Part shown: piece by piece, positions 11,047 to 35,354 of the stretch | Position numbering within the stretch: the stretch's first letter is position 1 | Layout of the letters: every line of letters starts with the position of its first letter | Source: a virus | Virus record (IMG/VR): IMGVR_UViG_3300009194_000008 | Span: 34,859 to 98,858 of that record | Length of the DNA: 64,000 nucleotides | Reading direction: 5' to 3' (one strand) | The notes under the pieces: model-generated | The model's input: the letters and a program-made list of their open reading frames with translations, nothing else | The model's database searches: none | Told to the model about the DNA's origin: nothing | Program-made: the position numbers and the translations under genes

Positions 11047-11925
11047 TTAGAAGTGGATGATAAGGTTCAGCGCATCGTTGCTGGACAGCTGGGTGATGAT
11101 CACGGTGTTCTCATCCAAAATCTGCATGTTGCGCACACCGGTGGGGTACAGGGCGGTGATCGGAGACACTTCGGTCACATAGCCGAACCAGTTAACCGGA
11201 TACTTGCCCTGGTTGTGGGTGATCTTCAGGGAGGTACCATCGTACTCCTTGGCCACAGTCACGCCATCGGGAACCACGAAGTCATCAGCCGCCCAGCTGA
11301 TAACGTCGATACGGATCGGCACGGTGCCAGCAGGACCCTGCGGGCCTTGAGCACCCTGATCGCCTTTATCACCCTTGAGGGAGGCCAGCCAGTCGGTAAC
11401 ACTACCGGTATAGCCTTCGTTGACCGCGACTTCATAGGCCGACATGCCATCGGGACCGACCGGGCCCTGGGGACCTTCTTCGCCTTGAATCCCCTGGATG
11501 CCTTGTTCACCCTGGACACCCTGCTCACCTTGGTCGCCTTTTTCGCCTTGGACACCCTGCTCACCCTGCTCGCCCTTCAGGGAATCCAGCCATTCTTGCA
11601 GAGTACCGGTAAAGCCTTCACCGACAGCGGCCACATAAGCGGACTCACCGGCCGGACCTTCCGGACCCACGAGGGAATCCAGCCATTCCTGGCGGGTACC
11701 ATTGAAGCCTTCGATTTGGGCCAGCTCGTAGGCGGACTTACCTTCAGCGCCTTGCTGACCGATCAGCAGGTCGGTACTGATACGACCATTGATGAACGGG
11801 CCAGAGTCGCCATCACGGTGGATAACTTCGACGAACTTCTGACCGGACAGATCAGGAAGTACCGTCAGTTCCGAGAGCTTTAAACCATTTGCATTCATCG
11901 TTACTTTCCTCTTTCTAAAAGACAA
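11047..11925 (-). CDS. Collagen-like tail fibre protein (likely start ~11898)
   Basis: Gly-X-Y run GEQGEQGVQGEKGDQ...GPQGPVGPDG and three SAY..A...G..G...EWL.SL.G repeats. Confidence 0.85.
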   Translation of the reverse strand: MSFRKRKVTMNANGLKLSELTVLPDLSGQKFVEVIHRDGDSGPFINGRISTDLLIGQQGAEGKSAYELAQIEGFNGTRQEWLDSLVGPEGPAGESAYVAAVGEGFTGTLQEWLDSLKGEQGEQGVQGEKGDQGEQGVQGEQGIQGIQGEEGPQGPVGPDGMSAYEVAVNEGYTGSVTDWLASLKGDKGDQGAQGPQGPAGTVPIRIDVISWAADDFVVPDGVTVAKEYDGTSLKITHNQGKYPVNWFGYVTEVSPITALYPTGVRNMQILDENTVIITQLSSNDALNLIIHF

Positions 11926-11978
11926 TTGGCATTGTTGCCAGTCCTACACACCTTAAAAGACCCTAGCCTTTTAAACGA

Positions 11979-19658: not shown

Positions 19659-20546
19659 TTACAGGAAGGTCGCGTTGTTGACGTCCTGCTCACCCAGCAT
19701 CGGTTCAACCCCACCCACGTCCAGCGTGAAGGTTGCCCCGTTGGTGGCGTACCCGATCGCATGATAGGTCGCGACATGCACATTCACCTGACAGGCAATG
19801 CACTCTTGGTAGGTGAACGTCCCGGCACCACCCGAACTGCCCTGGACTTCCTTGTCGACACCGGAACACAGGGCGATCTCGGAGATCACTGGTGAGCGAA
19901 CGGACCCTGTACGGATTTTGTGGGCATTGAGGATTTCGGCGATATCATCCGGACCCAACTCAACGGTCATCACCGCTGAAGCGGACTCAGAACTACTGGA
20001 ACCGAGGACGATACCAGTGTTTGAGATAGCGGGGCGTTCCGGGTTGAGGTTATCGGTAGTCGGGGTAAAAGGCGTGGTGGTTGCCACCCCATCAGTCACC
20101 TCTACACGCTGTAGCTGCGCTACCACATCGTCCATGGTAATACGACGCAGATAGTAGGCCACATAGTTCACCCCATCGTGGGTTTCCAGCACCCGTAAGG
20201 CGTAACGGTCACGAACATGCGCCGGGAGATCATTGGTGACTTCACGTAACACAAAGGGGATCTGTCCATAGAGACCCGCATCAGTAGCGCGATGCGGGAC
20301 CGGTACGGTTTCATCACTACCATCGTCAGCCTTGACGGTAGCGTGGCCCAGGTTACCGATCGCGAAGTAGCGCATGGCTGGGGTCTGTGTCGCAGGCGGA
20401 GTAACACCGGCCTGAACATCGAAACGTTCATTGAGAGTGGTGTTCTCAATCAATTCAAACGGGATGCCCAGGTTTTTGATCGTTTGCAAATACGTCCCGT
20501 AAACAGTCCGCGTGACGCCAATGATTTCTTGGTCCATAGAGGCCAT
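19659..20546 (-). CDS. phiKZ-like conserved virion/baseplate protein
   Basis: NTTLNE...YFAIGNLGH...H...DA.LY..IPFVLR....DL...R..Y.LR...YY pattern recalled from phiKZ-like structural proteins. Confidence 0.6.
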   Translation of the reverse strand: MASMDQEIIGVTRTVYGTYLQTIKNLGIPFELIENTTLNERFDVQAGVTPPATQTPAMRYFAIGNLGHATVKADDGSDETVPVPHRATDAGLYGQIPFVLREVTNDLPAHVRDRYALRVLETHDGVNYVAYYLRRITMDDVVAQLQRVEVTDGVATTTPFTPTTDNLNPERPAISNTGIVLGSSSSESASAVMTVELGPDDIAEILNAHKIRTGSVRSPVISEIALCSGVDKEVQGSSGGAGTFTYQECIACQVNVHVATYHAIGYATNGATFTLDVGGVEPMLGEQDVNNATFL

Positions 20547-20616: not shown

Positions 20617-21102
20617 TCAACGTAACCTAAGGTTGATCCCATCAAAATGGAAGCGGTCTTCTACTGTTTCGTTCCACAACAACTCCACAGGATGACTGTA
20701 CGAGTCTTCGATTGACCGTAGTTCACGAATCAACACCCCCCACTGTTTTTGAAAATATCGAACGGAGGAGAACGAATCTCCACGGTCGATGTAGCGAATA
20801 AGATAATCATCCAGTAGGGATGGGTGTGGATACACTCGGTAATGAAAAATTTCCTGATTGATGAGTTGTTGAATGATGGGCATCTCAGTCGCAGCGAAGA
20901 TAATCCTTGCGGTTGATAGATGACACTTTAACATTCTAATGTAGTTTACCGGAAAAGTCGGATCACCGCGGTATCCATTTGTATCGAGGTCTATCACCGT
21001 ATCATCCGGTATGGATTTCGTGTGATATAGTTGGTTTTGTATTGACCGGAACATCCGGGACTTTCCCACGCCCGGAAAACCACAGACGACATGTGGTTGC
21101 AT
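20617..21102 (-). CDS. Small P-loop NTPase/kinase-like protein
   Basis: Walker A GFPGVGKS; FP.NYI...VYP...Y..R...RG. Confidence 0.65.
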   Translation of the reverse strand: MQPHVVCGFPGVGKSRMFRSIQNQLYHTKSIPDDTVIDLDTNGYRGDPTFPVNYIRMLKCHLSTARIIFAATEMPIIQQLINQEIFHYRVYPHPSLLDDYLIRYIDRGDSFSSVRYFQKQWGVLIRELRSIEDSYSHPVELLWNETVEDRFHFDGINLRLR

Positions 21103-21107
21103 GAGGG

Positions 21108-21659
21108 TTACCCGAATGTGAAGTCAGTGGTTAATGCTACCCGAAACTCCCCTGGGTGGGGGAGTACATAGTGAGGGATGTAACACGGAAAGATCACCAT
21201 CATACCCGTTGTCGGGGAAATGTGGTGATTCGCGAAATATCCACGTCGAACCGGTGTGGGGTATGATCGACATGCCGCACCACGGGGATCCATCAGGGTG
21301 AGGTCCCCTGGCGCCGCCGCAAGATACAACACCGTGGTCAACAGTGAATGACCGTGGATATGGGGTTCAATCCCGGCGTTGTTATGTCCATGAACCGCCC
21401 AACTGTGATAGGACATTGTTGATTCGTCAATTGGGTAATCCCAGCAGTCTTTTGTGTACTGTAAGACGGCTGGTACGATTACCTCGCGCCGCAAGCGCCA
21501 CAAGTAGGGCGTGTGTTCCTCACTAATGATCTCTTGCTCGTCCGCACCCCACTGGGCCATTTGCGGACTACTAAAGATTTCAGTAATGGCGCGTTCTTCG
21601 TCGATGTCCTTTATAACCTGTTGTCCAATCTGTGTGCGCCACGGTTCATGGTATTCCAT
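21108..21659 (-). CDS. 2OG-Fe(II) oxygenase-like protein (HxH...H type)
   Basis: SW...PHIH...LTTVLYL...L.L.DPR...G.MVIFP.YIPH.V...R. Confidence 0.8.
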   Translation of the reverse strand: MEYHEPWRTQIGQQVIKDIDEERAITEIFSSPQMAQWGADEQEIISEEHTPYLWRLRREVIVPAVLQYTKDCWDYPIDESTMSYHSWAVHGHNNAGIEPHIHGHSLLTTVLYLAAAPGDLTLMDPRGAACRSYPTPVRRGYFANHHISPTTGMMVIFPCYIPHYVLPHPGEFRVALTTDFTFG

Positions 21660-22759
21660 TACGCCTCCCGGCTAGTGGCAATTAAACCACTCTCATTAAC
21701 GTAGGGGGTAGGTTCCAGCTGACCTGTCATCCCATTAGCTTCGATAATGTCTGGTGCTAGACGTTTCATTTTCTGACAATGGTGTTCGACCAGACCCAAG
21801 GCCTTATGGTCGTGGGTTGTCTTTTTGCAGGAATTACAAATCGAAAACATGGGACACCCATAACAGCTATACTTCATCACGCTGATTTCGGGGTCGTTCT
21901 GTAGTGGTGTGGTCAACTCTCCGGTCATTTCACTATTAAAGTCAATCGCGTATTTTTTATCGTCAGCAAATGCTGGACAGCTATAGTAGTCGCCGGATGG
22001 TTGTAGCGTACGTATCCCTGCATCACACTGTCGCGACAATGGGCAAGTAGTGAGTTCCCCTCTCAACTTACGTACCATCTGCTTTGTATTATATTCCCAC
22101 TCCGTGAGGCCGGCTTTCCATATATCAACGTAGTGTCCATACATGTCAGCAAGTAGGTAAAGGGATCCCTCATTGCCCATTTGTCGGCCTTTGATCTCTA
22201 CCGATGGCCCCGATGACATTGCGTAGTTGGCTTTACATTCAACTTCCATCTCACGGGCCAGACGGACGTGATCCAAAACCCGGTCGGCATTGTCTTCATC
22301 GATAACCGAAATGAAGTCTGGCCGGTAACCACAGATATCCAACATGCAATCGGAGACTTTCCAGAACTCTTCTTCGGTAAAGGGGGTAAAATCCCCCTTC
22401 AGTCGCTTATCGCCGTACTGGAAACTGGTAATTACCGAGAACTTTGGGTGTTGAAAAACCGCCCGCCAACGCTCGGGTTTCTTGTAGAACGGCCACAGGT
22501 TACTGGTGATACTTACAATAACATCAAGGTTCTCATCATCGAGGTAGTCCAGCAGTTCTTGGTAATAGTCAGGGGTCATCATCAGCGGATCGCCACCGTT
22601 GACAATAATTGTCTCTGTCTCCGGGAACCTAACCAGGAAGGCTTTGATTTGATCCAATGACAACTCATCCCCTGCATCATCGGCAATCGACGTACTGGAA
22701 CAGAAGGTGCATTTGAAATTACACCGTTCTGTTGGTTTAATTACGAGATCCACACCCAC
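21659..22759 (-). CDS. Radical SAM/SPASM-domain enzyme B
   Basis: CNFKCTFC (CxxxCxxC), GGDP, SPASM-type Cys: CPLSRQC...SC...CYGC...CNSC...HC. Confidence 0.92.
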   Translation of the reverse strand: MGVDLVIKPTERCNFKCTFCSSTSIADDAGDELSLDQIKAFLVRFPETETIIVNGGDPLMMTPDYYQELLDYLDDENLDVIVSITSNLWPFYKKPERWRAVFQHPKFSVITSFQYGDKRLKGDFTPFTEEEFWKVSDCMLDICGYRPDFISVIDEDNADRVLDHVRLAREMEVECKANYAMSSGPSVEIKGRQMGNEGSLYLLADMYGHYVDIWKAGLTEWEYNTKQMVRKLRGELTTCPLSRQCDAGIRTLQPSGDYYSCPAFADDKKYAIDFNSEMTGELTTPLQNDPEISVMKYSCYGCPMFSICNSCKKTTHDHKALGLVEHHCQKMKRLAPDIIEANGMTGQLEPTPYVNESGLIATSREA

Positions 22760-22762
22760 TCC

Positions 22763-23830
22763 TTAGTCGGCCCACCCGACTTTAACTGGATTGCCTGACG
22801 CACGGTTGGCCAGTGCCCAGAAAACCAGATTCGTGGTAAACATGCGCGATTCCATGGGAGGAACAATGAGCGTCAACCGATCCAACTGCGTATAAGCGTC
22901 AATATACCCGTCCACTATTTCGTCGTCGGGGAGTTCGAGAAGTTCAATCGGCACAGTCATTTCACGCACATTTGTCTCGAGGTACGTGTTGGTGTTGATG
23001 GTGTTAAGGAGTTTGCGGAGATCGTGTTGATATCCTTCCTTAAACGCCACGATTTTCTCAGAAGATGAAAATACATCTTCAAGGTCAACCTCACGCGACA
23101 CTACCTTGAGTCCTTCGATATCACGCAGTGGGGAATTCATAGTCAGTGTAGCGGTGGGGAGCTCCCCTAGCATCTTTTTAATATGTGGCGAGAAATACAG
23201 ATACCCCAACTTACTCCGTTGTGTTTCTATTTGATCATTAATTGCCCGATAAAGGCGATGACGTAGTCGTGTGGGTAAGGTAGTATCCTCTTCACCTGCC
23301 ATATGGCCGAGCAGGCGGTATTCCACCGGGAGGTGTTCGTGGTGGTTGTTCAAAAACTCAAATACTACATCGGAGCGCGACATTTCTGTCATGCACCGTT
23401 TGATAAAGTTAGGTGTTGTCGTTTCACTACCCCAAATGAACGTTGATTCAGAGCGTTCACGGTTAAGGAACAGTAAGAACGCAAGTTCACACAGCGCGCT
23501 ATGGGAAAGCTTTGGGAACAGGTGACGAACCCAGAAACAGAAAAGCTTGACATAGGCCTCGTCGTCACAGAAGATAACCACGGGCCTGTCGCGGTCACAT
23601 AACAGTTCTAACTCATCAGGAAAAACACTCGTAATAAAGTCATCGACGTCCTTGGTATAATAACAGGTCTGTGCGAGTTCTGGAATACCTAACGACTTCG
23701 ACAGTCGATCATCTTCGGATTCTAGAAAATGATCCTCAATACCACTACCAATGATGTATCGTTGGGTGTTACTGTTGAGGTGGTCAATATGGTCAACATA
23801 AACGTCGTCAAATAACAGGTACATTCTCAA
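22763..23830 (-). CDS. Hypothetical protein in radical SAM cassette
   Basis: 355-aa ORF, tightly packed and overlapping with neighbours; no recognised motif. Confidence 0.75.
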   Translation of the reverse strand: MRMYLLFDDVYVDHIDHLNSNTQRYIIGSGIEDHFLESEDDRLSKSLGIPELAQTCYYTKDVDDFITSVFPDELELLCDRDRPVVIFCDDEAYVKLFCFWVRHLFPKLSHSALCELAFLLFLNRERSESTFIWGSETTTPNFIKRCMTEMSRSDVVFEFLNNHHEHLPVEYRLLGHMAGEEDTTLPTRLRHRLYRAINDQIETQRSKLGYLYFSPHIKKMLGELPTATLTMNSPLRDIEGLKVVSREVDLEDVFSSSEKIVAFKEGYQHDLRKLLNTINTNTYLETNVREMTVPIELLELPDDEIVDGYIDAYTQLDRLTLIVPPMESRMFTTNLVFWALANRASGNPVKVGWAD

Positions 23831-24539
23831 CTCCTAATTCACTAACCGCTTTATTGAACCGAGCGATAAACTCTTTCTCATCAAACTCGCCCTGCTGTAT
23901 CCCGATGCCGATCAGGAATACCGGATTTTCAGCATTACACCAAAAAAGTTCCAGTGTACTTCCCCGGTAAAGGGGTTTATCGTAAAGATCCTGATAGTAA
24001 CACAACGGAATAATGGGGGTGCCATCCAGGAGTAATGGGAACAGATCGTGGCCGATTAGTTTAATATAGTTAATTCCCGTTAGATCCCGATCGGTTACTA
24101 CCTCGTGTTGTTTGAAAATATAGTCCTCATTGACCCCGGTCCATTTCATGTTGTAGAGACTGAGTGACTCGATAATACTCAGCCAACGGTAAATAATGTC
24201 ACGGTTTTGAGGGTCGATGATAAGATCGTGGTAGTCGATCCCCGACTCACTGGCAAACCCTTTAATTTGTAGTAATACTTCTAGGACGCCACGTTCCAGC
24301 TGAGGTAGGTCATGCACCATAGGAGAGCGCATATACGCCAGCAACAGAGAAAAATAATCATCGGTTGATGTAAAATCTAACGTTACTTCCATTCCGAGGT
24401 TGGTCAAATACGTCAAAAATACTTGCCCTTCAAGTTTCGACTCCGCTACGTCGATAACCACCTCAGGCGTGGGCTTCTCAGCCACCAGTCTTTTGATAAC
24501 ATCGGTGGGGACTGGAACTACCGTATTAATTGCTTGCAT
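23808..24539 (-). CDS. Hypothetical protein in radical SAM cassette
   Basis: 243-aa ORF with GAGGA RBS, directly downstream of the CHxS protein. Confidence 0.75.
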   Translation of the reverse strand: MQAINTVVPVPTDVIKRLVAEKPTPEVVIDVAESKLEGQVFLTYLTNLGMEVTLDFTSTDDYFSLLLAYMRSPMVHDLPQLERGVLEVLLQIKGFASESGIDYHDLIIDPQNRDIIYRWLSIIESLSLYNMKWTGVNEDYIFKQHEVVTDRDLTGINYIKLIGHDLFPLLLDGTPIIPLCYYQDLYDKPLYRGSTLELFWCNAENPVFLIGIGIQQGEFDEKEFIARFNKAVSELGVENVPVI

Positions 24540-24564: not shown

Positions 24565-25137
24565 TTACACACCACCACCGTTACCTGGACCGTCGCCATG
24601 ACAGCTAGAGTGGCAACTATAATGGCAGCTAGAATGACAGAATGTTTCGCTGATGGATACCGTTGAATTCCGTACATTGACCACCTTATTCTTTACCGCC
24701 GTCATGTACGATCTCAGATCGCCATAATCGACCGGATTTCCAGCGGCCGTGCCACTGCCTCCAGGATCACTAATACCTGTCCTATAACCACTATGTAGAT
24801 GACCAATGCGGGTCTCATTAGCAAATACATAATACCTGGAGTTATTGTTGTACCGCATATACACTGAAACACGGCGGATTGCTGTGTACAGCGCGGCATG
24901 TGCGACAATACGACTGCGCATGGTAGACGAGTCAATATTACCGGAGAAGTCACTGGTACTTGGACTATTGTAAAGTCCATTTTTCGACCCAGTGAAGTAC
25001 GACTCGTATGTACTCCGGGCATAGCCGTTGTAATCAGGTGGGTAATTGCCACTTCCCCAACTAATTCCCGAATTCAGAGGATTTCGAATGTAGGCGTTAA
25101 ACAGGTTAACGACGTGCTGTGATGTAACATCGGTCAT
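24565..25137 (-). CDS. Putative radical SAM substrate with C-terminal (CHxS)3-CHG core
   Basis: C-terminus ...ETF-CHSS-CHYS-CHSS-CHG-DGPGNGGGV; lies between two rSAM/SPASM genes. Confidence 0.75.
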   Translation of the reverse strand: MTDVTSQHVVNLFNAYIRNPLNSGISWGSGNYPPDYNGYARSTYESYFTGSKNGLYNSPSTSDFSGNIDSSTMRSRIVAHAALYTAIRRVSVYMRYNNNSRYYVFANETRIGHLHSGYRTGISDPGGSGTAAGNPVDYGDLRSYMTAVKNKVVNVRNSTVSISETFCHSSCHYSCHSSCHGDGPGNGGGV

Positions 25138-25143
25138 GTTTCA

Positions 25144-26184
25144 TTATCCTTCAATCATCGTAAGTGGGATGAGGTTGTCGCCGCCTCTCTGGATGTAACG
25201 CAAAAGATTTTTCAAACCACCGCACCGGTCACCCTGCCAGGGAAGTTGATGACAATCACCGCCACATAGATGAAACACATCACACTGTAAACAGTTGGGG
25301 TGAAAATTCAACTCGTGGGTGATTTCAGCAAGTCGCCCATCGCTGGTAAGAAAGGTTTCAACACTGTCGTCAATCGTGGCATGTTTATTACTTGCTGCGG
25401 TGTTGGGACATCCAGCGAGTGACCCATCGGCGTTCATTGTTACTAGATTCTGTTCGCAGTTACGGCAGTTGGTGTCTGTCTTAACCACCTGTGTATCAAG
25501 CTTCTCCTCAATTATATCTAAGGTGCCGATTGAGAAATTCCAATGGTACTGTGGATCCTTGTATAATTTATAGACCTCGACAAACCAATTATCTTGAGCT
25601 TCGTTATCCGGAAAGATCGCCGGGTTGCGCACGGCGTTACCATCCAGCGTCAGGCGTTCCAGTTTGATGTTCTCCGGCGCTACCTGTTGCATCTCATTAA
25701 GGAACTCCATTATCTCCATATTCACCAGTTCGGTGTTGACCGAAACAAAAACACACCGTGGAATCCCTTCGTTCTTCAAGATGGCAACATTCTTTTCCCA
25801 TAGCGCCTTTTGGTTATGGGTTTCAAAACGAATCCCTACATCCCAGCTGGTACCGACAAACCCAATGCGGCGTAAGAGCGCCAGTTTCCGATCATCCAAC
25901 TTCAACACGAGGTTCGTCGTAATTGTAATTGCAACATTTGGTTGTTTTTCATAATAGGCAACGAATCGTTCCAAATCCTCTATGGGGGCAAGAAGTGGCT
26001 CACCTCCATGTAGGATCAGCATCACCTGTTCCCCTTCTGGGTAGTGGGCGATAAATTGATCAATCCAGGCAATGGTGGCGTCTGCATCCCACTTGACTTT
26101 ACTCCCGTTGCGTCCGTTAGTAAAGCAGTGGTCACAATGCAGGTTACAAGTATCGGACGTCTTAACATAAATTGCCTTACTCAT
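25144..26184 (-). CDS. Radical SAM/SPASM-domain enzyme A
   Basis: CNLHCDHC, HGGEP, TTNL; SPASM CRNC...GCP...CLQC...CGGDC...C. Confidence 0.92.
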   Translation of the reverse strand: MSKAIYVKTSDTCNLHCDHCFTNGRNGSKVKWDADATIAWIDQFIAHYPEGEQVMLILHGGEPLLAPIEDLERFVAYYEKQPNVAITITTNLVLKLDDRKLALLRRIGFVGTSWDVGIRFETHNQKALWEKNVAILKNEGIPRCVFVSVNTELVNMEIMEFLNEMQQVAPENIKLERLTLDGNAVRNPAIFPDNEAQDNWFVEVYKLYKDPQYHWNFSIGTLDIIEEKLDTQVVKTDTNCRNCEQNLVTMNADGSLAGCPNTAASNKHATIDDSVETFLTSDGRLAEITHELNFHPNCLQCDVFHLCGGDCHQLPWQGDRCGGLKNLLRYIQRGGDNLIPLTMIEG

Positions 26185-26190
26185 ACATCC

Positions 26191-26976
26191 TCACGTCAGC
26201 GGAGGGAGTTTAGTGTCGTCGATCAGATGTTCTCTGAACCACTTGATCACTACGTACTTGGTGTGGGTGACTACAGGTGTAGACAGGTGGTGGGCCTTAT
26301 TGTCGGCTGTCGCAAGGGGGTAGTTAAAAAACAACAACGACCCTTTTTTTGGGTAAACGCAAATACCCAAGTGATCAAAGCAGGTACCGCCATCACCATG
26401 TGTGTCATTTAAATACATGACCATGGTACCGACCCGTTGTCCTCCATTATCAAGTGCCCGAGAACGGTTTTTTCCTTCGCCAAAGAAATCATGGTGTCCA
26501 CGGATACCTTCGTCGTAGTCGTACCGAACAAAACTACTACGTTCCGTTTTAAACCGTGGCCATAATGTAATCGCCTCAAGGCGTTCTTCAAACCTCTTCA
26601 TAATCGGACATGAACTACGTTTTAGAGCTTTCCCATATGCAGTGCGACGCTCGTCAATAACCTCATTACCTTCATGGTCTAAAAGAAAACCCATGCGTTT
26701 GAGACCGGTGTTGTATTTTTCGATGAGGGTATCGCATTCAACATCGGTTAGAAAATGATCGATAACTCTAACATGCGGGTCATCAATGGAGAGACGTACA
26801 CAACAGTCATCTGGAAGTAGGTGACGTGCACTGTTTAGGGAGTGCTCACTGATGGTTGGTGCCACACGGTACGGGGGTATCGGGTATGACATTAATAGGT
26901 ACTCTGGGTGGAGTGATGGTATTTCTATAATATTCCCTAACGGGGTATTCCTCCACCAACCCGGATAGACCCACAT
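26191..26976 (-). CDS. Prolyl-4-hydroxylase-like 2OG-Fe(II) oxygenase
   Basis: FLT..ECD.LI, RT, RY...HHDFF, R..T..MYLND...GG.T.F, P.KG..LFF, H...PV...K....KW. Confidence 0.88.
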   Translation of the reverse strand: MWVYPGWWRNTPLGNIIEIPSLHPEYLLMSYPIPPYRVAPTISEHSLNSARHLLPDDCCVRLSIDDPHVRVIDHFLTDVECDTLIEKYNTGLKRMGFLLDHEGNEVIDERRTAYGKALKRSSCPIMKRFEERLEAITLWPRFKTERSSFVRYDYDEGIRGHHDFFGEGKNRSRALDNGGQRVGTMVMYLNDTHGDGGTCFDHLGICVYPKKGSLLFFNYPLATADNKAHHLSTPVVTHTKYVVIKWFREHLIDDTKLPPLT

Positions 26977-27012: not shown

Positions 27013-28299
27013 TTATTGCCACTGTGGCGGCCACACGGTTCGCCATGAACCACTAACCCGTGCCTGGAGCTGTCCATTGTAAACTCTCAGGCTGGTTTCG
27101 TCGCTGGAGTTTTTGATCACGTAACGACTATCGTGTTCATTACCCGCAATGTGGTCATTCAGTGCCTGACGAACACGCTGCGGTGTCATGAAACGGTTGC
27201 CGGCGGTACCATTCACAGCATCACTGTAAGAGGCAGTCGGGTAGTTGTCTACATTACCTAACCCCACCTGAGCTTTCGTAACGTTGTGTGGGTTGTTGGT
27301 GTTAGTGGTATGTTGCTCCAACTGCCGTCCCGCTTGGAAATCAATGGCTTGCGCGGTGCGCAGTGGGGTCATATACCGATCGTTACGATCCCCAACTTCA
27401 GCCTCGCCCTGGGATGAAAGAGTAAAATCCTCCACCCGACCAAGACCCACTTGAGTTTTCGTGACGTTATGGGGGTTGTTATAATCATCACGGTGACTAC
27501 GAAAGTCCCGACCTAGATGAAAATCAACCCCGTGGACCAAACCCTCTACGGTTATAAAGCGGTTATTCGCGGTTCCTGTTTCAACTTCCAGTAACGTTGC
27601 GGTAGGGTAGTTATTCACTGAACCCAAACCCACCTGGGCTTTCGTGACGTTATGGGGGTTCGTTGAGTTGGCTTTGTGGTCCTGGAACCGACCATCGAGA
27701 GCATCGGTATAGTCCTTCCCAACGTCGAGCAGTTCCCGGGCGTACGCCCGTACTTCGTCATGAATTGACTGATCACCCACCACAATCGCTTGGACAACGC
27801 GTTCTAACTGGATGACCAGATACTCAAATCCATACAACTCCCATAGCGCATGTAGATGCCCTCCTGGGGGGTATTCCGATGGCTTACCAATGATCTCGGC
27901 CCATTCAACTGGTCGATCATCATCTTTCAGGGTTTGAAGTACCTGCTCCAGCGCGGCTGTTGAAATTGCAAAGTCACCACCCACCGCCTGGTAGTCGACG
28001 GTGACTTCTGAGGTAACATTGGGGTCAATAACAACCAATGTACCACAAACTTCCAGACCGCTGCGGGTAGTAGCATCCTCGTATAGGTAGGTGGCAATGT
28101 AATGGACATCGGGTTTTAACCGAAGGCCCGAAGAATCCCTAAGGACCAAGGACTCGGTATAAAACGCGCCATTGTTAGGAACAAATACACGCATGCCATC
28201 ACGTGAGTTTTCCACCAGGGTATGGCGTTCCCCAATGACCAGATTGTCTGGATTTCGTCCAGTCAGGTCCAACGGATACTTACGAATTAACGGGGTCAT
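27013..28299 (-). CDS. Tail fibre protein with NPH.VTK.QVGLG repeats
   Basis: YPLDLTG..PDNLV..E.H N-terminus (phiKZ-like); three NPHNVTKAQVGLG.V.NY-type repeats; C-terminal WRTVWP. Confidence 0.8.
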   Translation of the reverse strand: MTPLIRKYPLDLTGRNPDNLVIGERHTLVENSRDGMRVFVPNNGAFYTESLVLRDSSGLRLKPDVHYIATYLYEDATTRSGLEVCGTLVVIDPNVTSEVTVDYQAVGGDFAISTAALEQVLQTLKDDDRPVEWAEIIGKPSEYPPGGHLHALWELYGFEYLVIQLERVVQAIVVGDQSIHDEVRAYARELLDVGKDYTDALDGRFQDHKANSTNPHNVTKAQVGLGSVNNYPTATLLEVETGTANNRFITVEGLVHGVDFHLGRDFRSHRDDYNNPHNVTKTQVGLGRVEDFTLSSQGEAEVGDRNDRYMTPLRTAQAIDFQAGRQLEQHTTNTNNPHNVTKAQVGLGNVDNYPTASYSDAVNGTAGNRFMTPQRVRQALNDHIAGNEHDSRYVIKNSSDETSLRVYNGQLQARVSGSWRTVWPPQWQ

Positions 28300-28317: not shown

Positions 28318-30372
28318 TTAGGCCAGTAGTGCTGTTGTTGCATCACCAAATACGGTATCCAGTTCCGATACGACATCGGTCATTTGTTGGTCAATATCGG
28401 AAAACTCGGCATCATACAGTCCAGTCACCGTAACCATAGTTGGTGAGTCCAATGTGTCGGCGGAGACAATCGCTGTAGGGTCTTCGAGCTCAGTATTGTA
28501 CAACTCGGCGATCGGAATGAGGTTAATGTTCTCAATCACACCTGCGGGTTGTATCCAAAGTTCCTGGCCGTTTTCCACATTCATGGTGGTGGCAATATTC
28601 AAATCAAACTCACCGCCATTTAGAATCGTGGCACTTGCAGGAGTTCCTGGCTCACCCATATGGATTTGAAGAATAGCATCTCGACCATTAACGTGTCGAC
28701 CGGTTAACAAGAACGACGCATTACCGGATTCGATTACCGAGTTGTCGTCTGCAAGTTGTTGCGGGCGAGTCAGTAGACGGATATACTGCGTCCCAGTTGC
28801 GTTATTGACATCAAATGAGAGGAAACGGACGAAATTGTCAGTCAATGGTCCGACAATAAGGTCAGGTACTGTTAAGCCACCCACCCTATCACTGTCAAAC
28901 GCAGTTCCAGTAAGGATGTCGGCCGCTAAATCGGGTTTAAGCAAACCAAACACACGACTTGCGTCATAAGCGACACCGTCTGTGGGCAGAAGTCCAGTGG
29001 TTATGGAGTCGATCTCCGCAATGGTGTATGCCCCTACCTGTTCCGCCGATACCTGGTGTGGGTTTTCAAAATCGTTAACATGACTTTCCAGAACCGTCCC
29101 AGTTACCGCTGCGATGGCCTCTTTTGTTGTCATCGGGGTCATGTAAAGGTCATCGCGCTCACCGGCAATTGCTTCGGAGTTGGTCGCGATAGAAAAGTTC
29201 TGTACGTTACCCAACCCGATTTGGAATTTATCCACATCGTGAGGGTTGTTAATGTCAGCAGCGTGCTGACCTAACGGAATGAGTGCTAAAACATCAATCG
29301 CCTCTGCTGTGCGCAGTGGGGTCATATACCGATCATTACGATCCCCGGCGAACGCTTCGCTTTGAACAGCGATGGGGTAGTTTTCTACTTCACCAAGGCC
29401 AATAACTTCTTTGGTCACTCCAGTGGGGTTAGTGGGATCACCACTCAAAACAGGGGCAAGACGGTCGATATAAAACTGATCAAGCGCCTGACCTACCCCA
29501 CGCGGTGACATATACCGAGTCGTCAATGACGCTTCGCGGGCTTCAACATCATCAGCGAAAAGATAGTTTTCAATGTTCCCCAGTCCCACCTGAAACTTAG
29601 TTACGGCGTGGGGATTGCTGGTGTCGGCGAGGTGCGTATTGAGTGGTTGAACCGCGTGCTCGTCTACCGTTGCCCGAACGTTGCTCGGCGACATATAGCG
29701 GTCACTACGTAACCCCGCCCGCGCTTCAGCTTCATCGGCGAAGATGTAGTTATTTACATTATCCAAACCCACTTGGGCTTTTGTGACGTTGTGTGGGTTG
29801 AGTCGATCATCCATATGTTGAGAGAAACGCCCTGACTCACTCTCAGAAATCGCGTCAACAACGTTACCAATCGAATCAACAATGTCTTGGAACCCAATAA
29901 GGTCATCCACCCGCTGTTCATGTGGGATTGGGGGGAACATCTCAGGGATAGTGTCAATCTGAGCCCAACCACGAGTTAACGGGTTAACCACTTTATTAGA
30001 GAGTTCTTCAAGAATCGCTTGATCATCGAACCCCCACTGTCCCCCAACTGTCTGGTATGTTAAGGAAACCACTCCCCCGATGTCGCGGTTCAGGAACCGA
30101 ATCGATCCAGCAATCGAACGTCCAGTTTGGGTCATTGCCTCCACAAACCAGTGGCCAACCACATAATCACGTCCTTCAACGTAAACCTCACCGGTGGTGT
30201 CGTTACGCACCACCATGGACTTAACAAAGAACGGGGCCGCTTTCGGAATCAGAAAATAGAAATCATCACGACCGGGCGTCTGTAGTGCCTGTAGTTCATT
30301 AAGCACCAAACACTCGGGATTGTTGCCGTACGGGTCAAAGGGGTAAAGACCGGTGGTGCTATGAGTAGCCAT
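28318..30372 (-). CDS. Tail fibre protein with NPH.VTK.QVGLG repeats
   Basis: YPFDPYG..P N-terminus paralogous to 27013-28299; five ~60-aa NP...V...Q.G repeats, the last degenerate. Confidence 0.8.
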   Translation of the reverse strand: MATHSTTGLYPFDPYGNNPECLVLNELQALQTPGRDDFYFLIPKAAPFFVKSMVVRNDTTGEVYVEGRDYVVGHWFVEAMTQTGRSIAGSIRFLNRDIGGVVSLTYQTVGGQWGFDDQAILEELSNKVVNPLTRGWAQIDTIPEMFPPIPHEQRVDDLIGFQDIVDSIGNVVDAISESESGRFSQHMDDRLNPHNVTKAQVGLDNVNNYIFADEAEARAGLRSDRYMSPSNVRATVDEHAVQPLNTHLADTSNPHAVTKFQVGLGNIENYLFADDVEAREASLTTRYMSPRGVGQALDQFYIDRLAPVLSGDPTNPTGVTKEVIGLGEVENYPIAVQSEAFAGDRNDRYMTPLRTAEAIDVLALIPLGQHAADINNPHDVDKFQIGLGNVQNFSIATNSEAIAGERDDLYMTPMTTKEAIAAVTGTVLESHVNDFENPHQVSAEQVGAYTIAEIDSITTGLLPTDGVAYDASRVFGLLKPDLAADILTGTAFDSDRVGGLTVPDLIVGPLTDNFVRFLSFDVNNATGTQYIRLLTRPQQLADDNSVIESGNASFLLTGRHVNGRDAILQIHMGEPGTPASATILNGGEFDLNIATTMNVENGQELWIQPAGVIENINLIPIAELYNTELEDPTAIVSADTLDSPTMVTVTGLYDAEFSDIDQQMTDVVSELDTVFGDATTALLA

Positions 30373-32861: not shown

Positions 32862-35354
32862 TTAGCTGAGTTTGACGTGTTGGTTGTAGTCTTGTGGGAC
32901 CGATACGTTGCGTGGGTCGAGCACCATCACTTCGGCTTGGTTGAACGCCCCATGTGTGGTCACGTAGTGGCTGATGAAAAACACTTGGTCGATCTGGTTC
33001 AATTCCAACATCTGGTTGATGAACGGAATCAGATTCTGCCGGTGTTGTTCATCAAAGGTACTGCCGAACTCATCTAGGTATAACGGCATGTCTTCCAGAC
33101 CCATGAACTTCATGACCAGGAGCTTGAAGGCGAAGTCCACAATGTCCCGCTGGGAGGCTGAACCACGTGAGATGTCGGGAGCGGTCACCGCACCATTATT
33201 GACATCCAGTGGGAACTTGTAGTCCAACTCATCTTTCTCGACCTGTGAGGGCAGAACCTCCATGGGGTAGGTCCAGATTTCAGCGATGACGGCGTTGACC
33301 ATCTTGACCACGTTTTGCATGAACCCCATCAGGTAACGACCGATCAGGCCGTCAGTGGGAGCCAAGGCTTTGACCAGAATCCCATAGTCCTTGTGGGCTT
33401 GGGTGGCTTCATCGTGCTGTTGTTGCAGGTCGTTCAGTACCCCTTCACGCAATTCGATCTTGGACAAGGTCTCCTGTGTCTGCGCCAGCTGCATCTGGGT
33501 GGCTTGAGTTTCATCGACCACGGCCTTTTGGAACAGATAGTCACGCTGCTTGTCCAGATCAGCAAAGAACGCCTCCAGCTCCCCACTGGCTTCCCGAAGC
33601 AGGCGCTCATAGTCGTAGAGGGTTTGTTGTGCCTGTTCCATTGACTTGATCCGCCGGTGGCGATGACGCAGTTCTTGGGTCTCCTTATCAATTTCGGTTT
33701 CCAAGTTCTTACGCCGTTGGTCCTGTTGCGTCAGTGCTTGCTTGTCAATTGCTTCGACATACCGCAAACGATGCGCTAAGGTATCGCGATCCTGCACCGC
33801 GTGTTGCCAGGCCACCTGTGTTTGCATGGCCTCATACCACGCGATGGCCGCACTGGTGTAGTTTCGTGGCTGACGAAACATCACCTTCTCTTCAACACAG
33901 ACATCCCACAGTGGCTTGAACAGAACCGATTCATTCACCAACCGCCGGAAGCGGCGTACGTAACCAACGTAGTCCTCATAATCATCCAAATACTGCTTGT
34001 CTTCCGCGATCTGTTTGTCCAGTTGTTCGATCGCCGCGGTCATCTTTTCCTTGGTGGCCTCCAAGCCTTTGATGTCTCGCTCGGAAACACCCGGTTGGAA
34101 CTCATGATCGCATTTCGGGCACTGGACGCTCTCACAGCCCTTTAAGCGCGCCAGGCGGGTCAGTAGTCCATTTAGCTGCCCATCGAGCTTCTGGCGCTCC
34201 CCTGTGGCCTTCTGATAGCGTTCCTGTGTCGCTTTACCTTTGTCTTGGGTAAAATACCCTTCCGTGTTCTCCGGGAAGGTCTGCAACAGGGTTTGCCATT
34301 CATCGAACACTGACGTTAAGAGTTTTGTTGGTTGACGATCCAACGGTAATTCGATTAACGGGAAATGACCTTGATACCGACGAAGGTCCTGGGCCAGCGA
34401 TTCCACGTCGCGGTTCTTTTGCTCGACCTCTTGACGTAGACGGGCAATGTCCTCTTCGCTGAGGCTGTCGTCACGGGACGGTGCTTGTTGCAAAAGCTGT
34501 TGATGTTCTTCCTGCATGCGTTCCAATACGGCATGGCGGCGCTGGTATTCCGTATTGGCGTCATGAATCGCCTGTGTCAGTCCCTCAGCGGACGATACAC
34601 CCCACTCCGGGGGTAGGGTCGGTTGCTTGGCTAACAGGCGTTTAGCACGGTCTGTGCGCGTCCTCAGCTGCTCTTCCAGGTCCCGCTGGCCCGTGAAGGG
34701 TGAATGAGCATCCGACTTACGATGCGTGTAAAGCTCATCCAGTTTATCGGTAAGCTGTTTGACATGTTGGCGGTACCGTGATACCTCGCCATCGTCAGGT
34801 AGGTCTTGGTTTTCACGCCCCATGCGTTTGGTGATGTGCTTGATGACCCCCAGCTGGTCACGATGGAGGCTACGGACCTTGTTATACATGTTAAAGGCAT
34901 AGCGCATATCCACCGGGGTAAGCTTGGTGAGCCACTCACGCCGTTTGGCCGTGGACAAGCCAGTGAACGGAGTCAACCCAATCAGCAACTCATGGATCTC
35001 ACGGGTCAGACCAAAATGCTCTTCCACCAGGTCCTTCTGAACGGCCATGGTGCCGCCTTCGTTCAACTCTACTCCATCACGGATGAACGAATGATGACCA
35101 CTACCGCGTTGGTAATGTGAATCCAGGTTATAAGTGACGCCGCGGTGAACCGCAGCAAAGGTCTTACGTCCCCCTTTGGCGAAATTGCTATGGTGGGCCG
35201 GTAGGGGTGTCATCTCTTCCAGCACCGACGACTTACCTGAGCCGTTACTGCCGATAATCAACTGCATGTTGTTGCGGGGGTTGTACTCAAACCGCTGGAT
35301 ATCCGACAACATCAACCGTTTGTACTTCTCTAACACTAGCTGGGTGATGCGCAT
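32862..35354 (-). CDS. sbcC: SbcC/Rad50-like SMC ATPase
   Basis: Walker A GSNGSGKS, coiled coils, CPKC zinc hook, Walker B LYLDEFG, ISH. Confidence 0.9.
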   Translation of the reverse strand: MRITQLVLEKYKRLMLSDIQRFEYNPRNNMQLIIGSNGSGKSSVLEEMTPLPAHHSNFAKGGRKTFAAVHRGVTYNLDSHYQRGSGHHSFIRDGVELNEGGTMAVQKDLVEEHFGLTREIHELLIGLTPFTGLSTAKRREWLTKLTPVDMRYAFNMYNKVRSLHRDQLGVIKHITKRMGRENQDLPDDGEVSRYRQHVKQLTDKLDELYTHRKSDAHSPFTGQRDLEEQLRTRTDRAKRLLAKQPTLPPEWGVSSAEGLTQAIHDANTEYQRRHAVLERMQEEHQQLLQQAPSRDDSLSEEDIARLRQEVEQKNRDVESLAQDLRRYQGHFPLIELPLDRQPTKLLTSVFDEWQTLLQTFPENTEGYFTQDKGKATQERYQKATGERQKLDGQLNGLLTRLARLKGCESVQCPKCDHEFQPGVSERDIKGLEATKEKMTAAIEQLDKQIAEDKQYLDDYEDYVGYVRRFRRLVNESVLFKPLWDVCVEEKVMFRQPRNYTSAAIAWYEAMQTQVAWQHAVQDRDTLAHRLRYVEAIDKQALTQQDQRRKNLETEIDKETQELRHRHRRIKSMEQAQQTLYDYERLLREASGELEAFFADLDKQRDYLFQKAVVDETQATQMQLAQTQETLSKIELREGVLNDLQQQHDEATQAHKDYGILVKALAPTDGLIGRYLMGFMQNVVKMVNAVIAEIWTYPMEVLPSQVEKDELDYKFPLDVNNGAVTAPDISRGSASQRDIVDFAFKLLVMKFMGLEDMPLYLDEFGSTFDEQHRQNLIPFINQMLELNQIDQVFFISHYVTTHGAFNQAEVMVLDPRNVSVPQDYNQHVKLS

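Follow-up and report, generated by a model that had tools for sequence, protein, structure and literature searches.

A conserved Cys-His-x-Ser tail in a jumbo-phage protein and its linked cassette of radical SAM enzymes

The locus described here raises the question of why a phage protein should end in a run of Cys-His units and be encoded between genes of radical S-adenosylmethionine (rSAM) enzymes. The protein, 190 residues long, is encoded on the minus strand (24565..25137) of the window, by which we mean the whole stretch of 64,000 nucleotides that was analysed (positions 34,859 to 98,858 of the IMG/VR virus record IMGVR_UViG_3300009194_000008). An original prediction, made from the letters of the window, had seen in this C-terminus a core peptide on which two different rSAM enzymes might install two chemistries, a Cys thioether and a His-x-Ser cyclophane. 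Our analysis leads to a related but different answer: the tail would be the flexible end of a folded, virion-associated, probably trimeric jumbo-phage protein, and the substrate of a phage-encoded rSAM maturation cassette. We give this reading a probability of about 0.58.

The repeat core, (Cys-His-x-Ser)x3-Cys-His-Gly, occupies residues 167-181 (24595..24639, minus strand) and was established by direct reading. The reverse complement of this segment, TGT CAT TCT AGC / TGC CAT TAT AGT / TGC CAC TCT AGC / TGT CAT GGC, translates as C167-H-S-S-C171-H-Y-S-C175-H-S-S-C179-H-G181 of the open reading frame (ORF), and the units differ in their synonymous codons (Cys TGT/TGC, His CAT/CAC, Ser AGC/AGT). 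The protein has no cysteines besides these four, and it ends in the Gly-rich stretch DGPGNGGGV (24568..24594, minus strand, likewise read directly), in which Pro184-Gly185 (24583-24588) belongs to a G-D-[GS]-P-G element kept in all five window-type proteins. Direct reading thus bore out the features from which the original prediction had started, namely the four Cys-His pairs at four-residue spacing, their being the sole cysteines, the Gly-rich end and the varied synonymous codons.

The repeat is shared by a large family. Five homologues retrieved in the first search all carry CHSSCHxSCH, and the C-terminal run of Cys-His-x-x units was present in every one of the 66 viral loci of the Cys-His-tail family obtained by a search of IMG/VR. 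We aligned 41 sequences with identities of 22-51% to the window protein; no column is invariant in them apart from the Cys and the His of units 1-3, and the Ser that closes units 1 and 2 (position 4) hardly varies. These invariant residues support the protein-level selection that had been proposed from the codon variation. A profile search of 1.84 billion representative proteins gave 813 clusters at E <= 0.001 and 505 at E <= 1e-10, with the window protein itself matching the family profile in the library search at E 1.3e-47. The family comprises hundreds of clusters across jumbo phages and Bdellovibrio-like bacteria, metagenome-assembled genomes (MAGs) of the latter containing a full cassette of the RxRR type described below.

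We tabulated 153 of these proteins (147 other listed library representatives and six from the first search). The C-terminal run of Cys-His units was found in 151 of them, and an interrupted version in the other two. An RxRR end is carried by 137 proteins, 134 of which have exactly three units; a short GS[IL]-type end occurs in eight, and the window form, with four units followed by GDGPGxGGG, in four. One further protein, P0098, is a near variant in which four units and GDSPG are followed by another domain. Thus, it can be concluded from these comparisons that the motif is real and selected and that the window form is a rare variant of it. Of the motif as first proposed, the conservation in homologues stood, whereas the four-unit count and the Gly-rich end are not general, since the great majority of relatives combine three units with RxRR.

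The unit number seems able to expand greatly, as a DT01-like relative with the full six-rSAM cassette has 13 Cys-His units instead of three (L029:10001-10681). In six other loci (L059-L063 and L082, e.g. L060:585-1351) we observed tandem pairs of short RGRR-tailed proteins of 126-140 residues, which resemble the window family in their last ~56 residues only (hhalign probability 98.9%). The tail, together with the helix and the strand before it, thus appears to be a portable module that sits here on another body.

The genes of all loci were then classified against a cassette reference, the six-rSAM set of Pseudomonas phage pPa_SNUABM_DT01 (DT01). Class A, an rSAM enzyme with a SPASM domain, adjoins the tail gene in 65 of the 66 viral loci, a gene of the h064 family follows the tail gene in about 60 of the 66, and class C, the second rSAM/SPASM enzyme, is present wherever the flank is long enough, barring three exceptions among 50 long-flank loci. 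The ordered synteny of the cassette extends to the cultured phages DT01, Atu_ph07 and RSL2. In the window, class A is encoded at 25144..26184 (minus strand; Pfam Radical_SAM and TIGR04085 SPASM; orthologue of DT01 gp066, Atu_ph07 gp171 and RSL2 ORF067), and its stop lies 6 nt before the start codon of the 190-residue gene. Class C, encoded at 21659..22759 (minus strand; Pfam and SPASM matches; orthologue of DT01 gp060, Atu_ph07 gp165 and RSL2 ORF075), is the most conserved gene of the cassette, with a phmmer E of 7e-152 to DT01 gp060 and 51-60% identity to its counterparts in 11 cultured jumbo phages. The window shows the row of class A, tail gene, h064 and class C that characterises the family, and the 98.9-kb record contains no rSAM gene beyond these two.

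The strongest argument for the maturation of the tail comes from the way in which the enzyme set varies. Loci with an RxRR end are ordered cupin/JmjC, class A, tail gene, h064, (h063), class B, class C, class D, h055, whereas window and GS[IL] loci keep only class A, tail gene, h064, an h063-like gene and class C; none of the genes of the majority form that go with the RxRR end (cupin, classes B and D, h055) occurs in the window block. Classes B and D are both present in 43 of 44 long-flank RxRR loci, as against none of six non-RxRR loci (Fisher p = 4e-7, uncorrected for phylogeny). In the trees of class A and class C the window, together with the locus of P0098 (L084), stands beside the RxRR-type DT01 and L029 (Shimodaira-Hasegawa-like approximate likelihood-ratio support, SH-aLRT, 96-100), while the GS[IL] group forms a separate clade in both trees (SH-aLRT 100), and a single joint clade of window-type and GS[IL] lineages was rejected by the approximately unbiased (AU) test with p = 0.034. 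These separate positions indicate at least two joint losses of the Arg-rich end and the four genes that accompany it. Since the enzyme set shifts with the tail end, the tail appears to be what the enzymes work on. By this comparison the Cys-His-x-Ser repeats would be the task of classes A and C together with h064 and h063, and the other enzymes (cupin, classes B and D, h055) would belong to the Arg-rich end; it is the minimal two-rSAM form of the window that allows the core enzymes to be told apart from the RGRR-linked ones.

The GS[IL] loci have additions of their own. In L017:14068-17336, L058:14130-17452 and L012:14064-16620 we found a gene for a 630-residue B12-binding rSAM protein followed by AspH-like proteins of ~235 residues, two in L017 and L058 and one in L012, of which only one (in L017) has a weak AspH match. 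This set is absent from the RxRR-type and window-type cassettes.

A second line of evidence concerns the tail-bearing protein itself. AlphaFold2, run with the 41-sequence alignment, predicts a compact alpha/beta body (residues 1-167) and a disordered tail (168-190), with a predicted local distance difference test score (pLDDT) of 86.5, a predicted template-modelling score (pTM) of 0.79 and a pLDDT of about 50 in the tail; in the model the last strand ends with the first Cys, and disorder sets in after it. The body found no counterpart by Foldseek against PDB or by a profile search of PDB sequences (A2), the best hit of a VIA-wide search had a Z of 3.6, and its BFVD matches were uncharacterised family members only, Atu_ph07 gp170 among them. 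Neither a Pfam match nor a C-terminal Peptidase_S74 domain (PF13884) was found in the window protein, and an NCBIfam scan returned no family at E <= 0.1.

The homologue gp170 of Atu_ph07 (31.9 kDa) was detected in the virion proteome of that phage with 8 unique peptides and 35% coverage, while the list of virion proteins does not contain gp165, gp168, gp169 and gp171 (Attai et al. 2018, PMC6102473, Table S5). It is thus a component of the Atu_ph07 particle. The virion samples had been heated to 95 °C in sodium dodecyl sulfate (SDS) before the gel (PMC6102473); gp170 peaks in gel band 1, the top slice, whereas other proteins of 29-34 kDa peak in bands 7-8 (PMC6102473, Table S5). Such a position would fit a high-mass form that is either covalent or very stable.

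A clue to the oligomeric state is given by P0098, which is 51% identical to the window protein over the full length and in which CHTS-CHSS-CHDS-CH-GDSPGTGDGTD passes directly into Peptidase_S74 (PF13884, E 1.5e-11, start at Ser206). Domains of this type stand at the C-terminus of trimeric phage fibres and spikes, such as endosialidase, T5 pb1 and the GA-1 appendage, where they drive the folding of the trimer and then cleave themselves off at their first Ser. With the domain starting at Ser206, the mature end of P0098 would lie about where the window protein ends, and three tails would run in parallel; the tail-bearing protein is therefore probably trimeric. The window protein differs from the S74 fibre proteins in that it lacks the domain and in that its predicted body is compact alpha/beta and not a beta-helical fibre. 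Taken with the virion data, this does not agree with the core peptide of the original prediction: the tail is not a classical core of a ribosomally synthesised and post-translationally modified peptide (RiPP) on a leader, but appears to be the flexible end of a folded and virion-associated protein.

The same observations bear on another explanation, which takes up the metal-binding alternative of the original prediction and in which the tail is an unmodified metal- or iron-sulfur-binding end of a trimeric fibre-associated protein and the rSAM enzymes act on the fibres, on another protein or on a small molecule. Cys and His are indeed the sole invariant residues of the alignment, and the S74 fusion implies three parallel C-termini and thus layers of Cys/His ligands. 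Metals are known from phage fibres and tail tips, as in the His-x-His iron sites of T4 gp37, the zinc of gp12 and the [4Fe-4S] cluster of lambda gpL. We regard this explanation as a serious rival and nevertheless as unlikely, because it accounts neither for class A abutting the tail gene in nearly all loci nor for the loss of four other enzymes exactly with the replacement of the RxRR end, twice independently; moreover, metals are not usually bound by Ser, the residue that is nearly invariant at position 4, and the predicted model has no ordered structure in the tail.

Alternatively, the 190-residue protein might belong to the enzyme set as a scaffold or carrier subunit whose tail holds a cluster or delivers sulfur or electrons while the enzymes modify the upstream fibres. 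It could be accommodated by a cassette that always lies directly behind fibre genes and by a body modelled as a folded domain without a known fold match. Such a subunit is, however, hard to reconcile with an Atu_ph07 homologue that is found in the particle when the enzymes are absent from the list, with an S74 fusion, which is typical of structural fibres and not of enzyme subunits, or with an enzyme set that co-varies with the tail end and not with the fibres. We regard it as highly improbable.

If the tail is matured, the next question is by which chemistry. Both class A and class C have CxxxCxxC at residue 13 plus a SPASM domain, and this early start leaves no room for an N-terminal RiPP recognition element (RRE) in either enzyme. 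Among NCBIfam models, class A scored 59.5 bits against YhhB (cut-off 445), 59.5 against anSME (TIGR03942; cut-off 349) and 54.6 against FxsB (cut-off 370), and class C scored 30.9 against anSME (cut-off 349), 29.3 against HxsC (cut-off 267.9; N-terminal 78 residues only) and 23.9 against XyeB (cut-off 450). The thioether-type rSAM models gave 52.5 bits for PapB (cut-off 340) and 25.3 for the SCIFF maturase (cut-off 425), both below their cut-offs. By sequence, class A has only one solved relative, the triceptide synthase ChlB (E 1.3e-6), and class C stands nearest, though weakly, to DynA and anSME, anSME being its sole solved sequence match. Both rSAM enzymes resemble peptide or protein maturases. 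The supposition that two different rSAM/SPASM enzymes accompany the tail has therefore held, as they are its near-constant partners, whereas their scores are weak and neither enzyme falls into a specific family.

Two known systems offer the closest comparison. Triceptide synthases link His-C2 to the C-beta of the third residue on HAA, HNR and HTK motifs (PMC11499958). With YhhB, HaaB, HtkB, ChlB and FxsB the window enzymes share the rSAM/SPASM architecture. Those synthases join the ring of residue 1, where His is allowed, to the C-beta of residue 3 in repeated three-residue motifs (PMC11499958), and the window tail does contain a repeated aromatic-x-x motif (H-S-S, H-Y-S, H-S-S, H-G-D). The enzymes, however, lie outside the maturase families of the XyeB/YhhB/FxsB type, and the known triceptides are made from short precursor peptides, none of their motifs in PMC11499958 having an invariant Cys before the His or a Ser acceptor. 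In the HXS antiphage system, HxsA is matured by the rSAM enzymes HxsB and HxsC with HxsD, and an S-H-R-S-S unit was shown to carry a site-specific mass change of +8 Da (Li et al., Nat Commun 2026, PMC13128918). Here the likeness consists in a full-size protein substrate, His-x-Ser repeats, two different rSAM enzymes and a small helper encoded alongside. HXS differs in that it is a bacterial defence system with another gene order and that HxsA, which lacks Cys, contains a peptidoglycan-binding domain and is processed at its N-terminus; the window proteins do not qualify as HxsA, HxsB/HxsC or HxsD. HxsB was not among the listed matches of either class, and HxsA (TIGR03979) did not match the 190-residue protein. 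The His-C2 links of triceptides and the modified S-H-R-S-S unit of HXS make a His-to-Ser link plausible, and a Cys thioether is likewise plausible; formylglycine formation and links between chains are other candidates.

The exact dual chemistry that had been predicted, with one rSAM enzyme forming Cys thioethers in the manner of sacti- or ranthipeptides and the other His-to-Ser cyclophanes on the same units, is a sub-case of tail maturation, and one of several possibilities that the sequences allow. The minimal cassette has exactly two rSAM/SPASM classes, the best family and solved matches of class A include YhhB, FxsB and ChlB, and every unit offers a Cys, with H-x-S in units 1-3 (unit 4 reads H-G-D). 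Class A, however, matches anSME equally well and class C is nearest to DynA and anSME, all scores lie 7- to 10-fold below the family cut-offs, and neither enzyme has an RRE-sized N-terminal extension. In addition, the tail is short for a thioether, which requires an acceptor, and no triceptide with a Ser acceptor is described in PMC11499958. We therefore judge this particular pairing quite unlikely.

Like anSME, the window enzymes lack an RRE and would take a protein substrate and modify Cys or Ser, and the likeness is one of generic SPASM similarity. The anSME substrate motif, C/S-x-P/A-x-R, is absent from the window tail, which has no Arg; in the RxRR relatives the last unit, C-H-G-S-R, has an Arg at +4 and no Pro or Ala at +2. 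That an rSAM/SPASM enzyme can act on a folded protein without an RRE is exemplified by QhpD. A heme-c-like reading of the tail as CX3CH was set aside, as the three-unit relatives leave an odd Cys; covalent heme attachment is a periplasmic process.

Maturation of the tail may be pictured as follows. The lineage of the window would have arisen from an RxRR-type ancestor by loss of the RxRR end together with the four linked genes. Once the body has folded, the Cys/His/Ser repeats would receive one modification from class A and another from class C, most likely radical cross-links, i.e., a Cys thioether and/or a link of His-C2 to Ser-C-beta, either within a chain or between the three chains. A collagen-type prolyl 4-hydroxylase (P4H) homologue (26191..26976, minus strand; PF13640) would then convert Pro184 in its X-Pro-Gly site, and the matured tail would stabilise or arm a fibre-associated component of the particle. 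The P4H homologue, whose best solved relatives are the P4H of Bacillus anthracis (1.8e-19), that of Chlamydomonas and human C-P4H alpha-2, occupies the position of the small cupin/JmjC protein of RxRR-type cassettes. A P4H in this slot was found in both window-type loci (the window and G001/L084) and in none of 66 other loci.

A more specific and tentative form of this idea is that classes A and C weld three parallel tails of a trimeric fibre-associated protein by Cys/His/Ser cross-links, with P4H finishing the end. If true, it would be the first case of a structural virion protein with a radical cross-link made by enzymes, and an inter-chain weld would explain why the 32-kDa Atu_ph07 homologue stands at the top of a boiled SDS gel; on balance we find it doubtful. 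More generally, rSAM/SPASM maturases are known mainly from small bacterial peptides, and here a virus would apply them to a folded particle protein. Should the tail turn out to be cross-linked, or to chelate metal, it would represent a new post-translational chemistry in virion assembly and a source of new enzymes for protein engineering. The window offers a minimal cassette in this respect, a set of five genes whose outcome can be read in one C-terminal tryptic peptide (residues 157-190, 34 residues).

Several points weigh against the maturation of the tail by the cassette. The modification is deduced from gene neighbourhood only, and the co-variation of enzymes and tail end amounts to just two independent evolutionary events, with an AU p of only 0.034. 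Every NCBIfam score is far below its cut-off, so that the enzyme assignments are weak. Repeats of Cys and His are classic metal ligands, and a trimeric arrangement suits metal sites without any modification. As gp170 was seen in bands 1-9, its gel behaviour could reflect a heat-stable non-covalent oligomer or smearing of the gel. Finally, P4H could act on another protein, e.g., the product of the collagen-like ORF 11050-11943.

This collagen-like ORF (11050-11943, minus strand) lies 15 kb from the P4H homologue and is a possible alternative client. It contains long G-X-Y runs (GEQGEQGVQGEKG..., GPQGPVGPDG) with Pro at X only and no Pro-Gly.

The gene block of the window is tightly packed and co-oriented and lies behind two tail-fibre-like genes. 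Its order is P4H, class A, the 190-residue protein, a 243-residue protein, a 355-residue protein, class C, a PF13759 protein and a 161-residue protein. The source record, a virus contig in IMG/VR, has 98,858 bp and a CheckV completeness of 34%, which implies a genome of jumbo size. The fibre-like genes, directly upstream and in the same orientation (27013..28299 and 28318..30372, minus strand; PHROG tail and virion structural families), match DT01 gp068 and gp069 with E 1e-149 and 7.5e-112 and thereby tie the phage to the lineage of Pseudomonas jumbo phages; fibre genes precede the cassette likewise in G001, RSL2, Atu_ph07 and the GS[IL] loci. Both fibre-like proteins have repeated NPHNVTKxQVGLG units.

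The 243-residue accessory protein that follows the 190-residue gene (23808..24539, minus strand; h064 family, phrog_20767) has gp169 as its Atu_ph07 homologue. Its predicted structure has a pLDDT of 89.7; Foldseek against PDB gave no match, and the best VIA-wide hit had a Z of 4.5 over 54 residues only. The 355-residue accessory protein (22763..23830, minus strand; h063 family) matches DT01 gp063 with E 5.4e-5 and the h063 protein of G001 with 38% identity and E 2.5e-83. An ORF of 250-400 residues stands at the h063 position in 53 loci, a count by size and place. That the 355-residue protein might be a degenerate rSAM enzyme was rejected (hhalign probability below 1%). Neither accessory protein matched any NCBIfam family, hence neither matched HxsD, and ESM Atlas look-ups of both gave nothing informative.

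Downstream of class C lies a 2-oxoglutarate- and Fe(II)-dependent oxygenase gene (21108..21659, minus strand; PF13759), possibly accessory, with a weak match to DT01 gp056; we do not count it in the core because it is absent from the sister locus G001. The block ends with the 161-residue protein of phrog_4182 (20617..21102, minus strand), whose membership is uncertain and whose 30%-identical homologue follows class C in G001. Beyond it stands a DUF7208 protein (19659-20546, minus strand; PF23838, E 8.5e-107) which shares 85% identity with the one in G001, a far higher conservation than that of its neighbours. Promoter predictions in the window were at chance level. The terminator scan gave 20 sites as against 10.3 in shuffled sequences (standard deviation 3.9), none of them just after the 190-residue gene. 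PADLOC, applied to the rSAM enzymes, returned generic viperin-core matches only, and no RNA dataset was listed for the stretch; the one DNA run listed as containing it is a subsurface metagenome, which may be its source.

Relatives of the window form proved rare at the DNA level. When IMG/VR was scanned with DNA patterns, the exact GDGPG form gave no match and a looser pattern a single locus, L084, which is the P0098 locus and corresponds to G001. It is syntenic with the window, its order being two fibre genes, P4H, class A, tail protein, h064, h063, class C, the homologue of the 161-residue protein, DUF7208 and a RuvC-like gene, with identities to the window of 40% for P4H, 71% for class A, 42% for h064, 38% for h063, 72% for class C and 85% for DUF7208. 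The 36.6-kb record contains two rSAM genes only. It is the record of L084/L087, which IMG/VR labels as having direct terminal repeats at a CheckV completeness of 12%; given the synteny with a jumbo-phage fragment, the terminal-repeat call is probably an artefact.

A metagenome scan aimed at window-type relatives returned RGRR types only. A candidate relative in a Nocardioides MAG (L083) was rejected as a spurious off-frame match. In 50,697 phage records neither the window protein nor an RGRR-type relative found a match by tblastn, nor did the cassette by megablast; the blank tblastn result is a failure of sensitivity, because DT01, Atu_ph07 and RSL2 carry homologues, which were reached through their rSAM genes.

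Full-text searches of the literature on His-Xaa-Ser rSAM systems, on phage-encoded SPASM RiPPs and on jumbo-phage rSAM clusters brought up no description of this family, and in jumbo-phage papers its genes appear in gene lists only; we thus found no published description of a Cys-His-x-Ser tail family with an rSAM cassette. What the window adds is the minimal two-rSAM form, the pairing of P4H with Pro-Gly, the S74 fusion and the gel anomaly of the Atu_ph07 homologue.

Some family members show further architectures. P0157 (650 residues) is interrupted or extended by HINT/intein domains (PF07591, PF14890 and others), which suggests a mobile intein inside this gene in some phages. In P0052 (453 residues) an N-terminal Gly_rich_2 domain (PF21722) is fused to the family domain, and BFVD lists three paralogues of 504-660 residues in Myoviridae sp. 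ctijX18.

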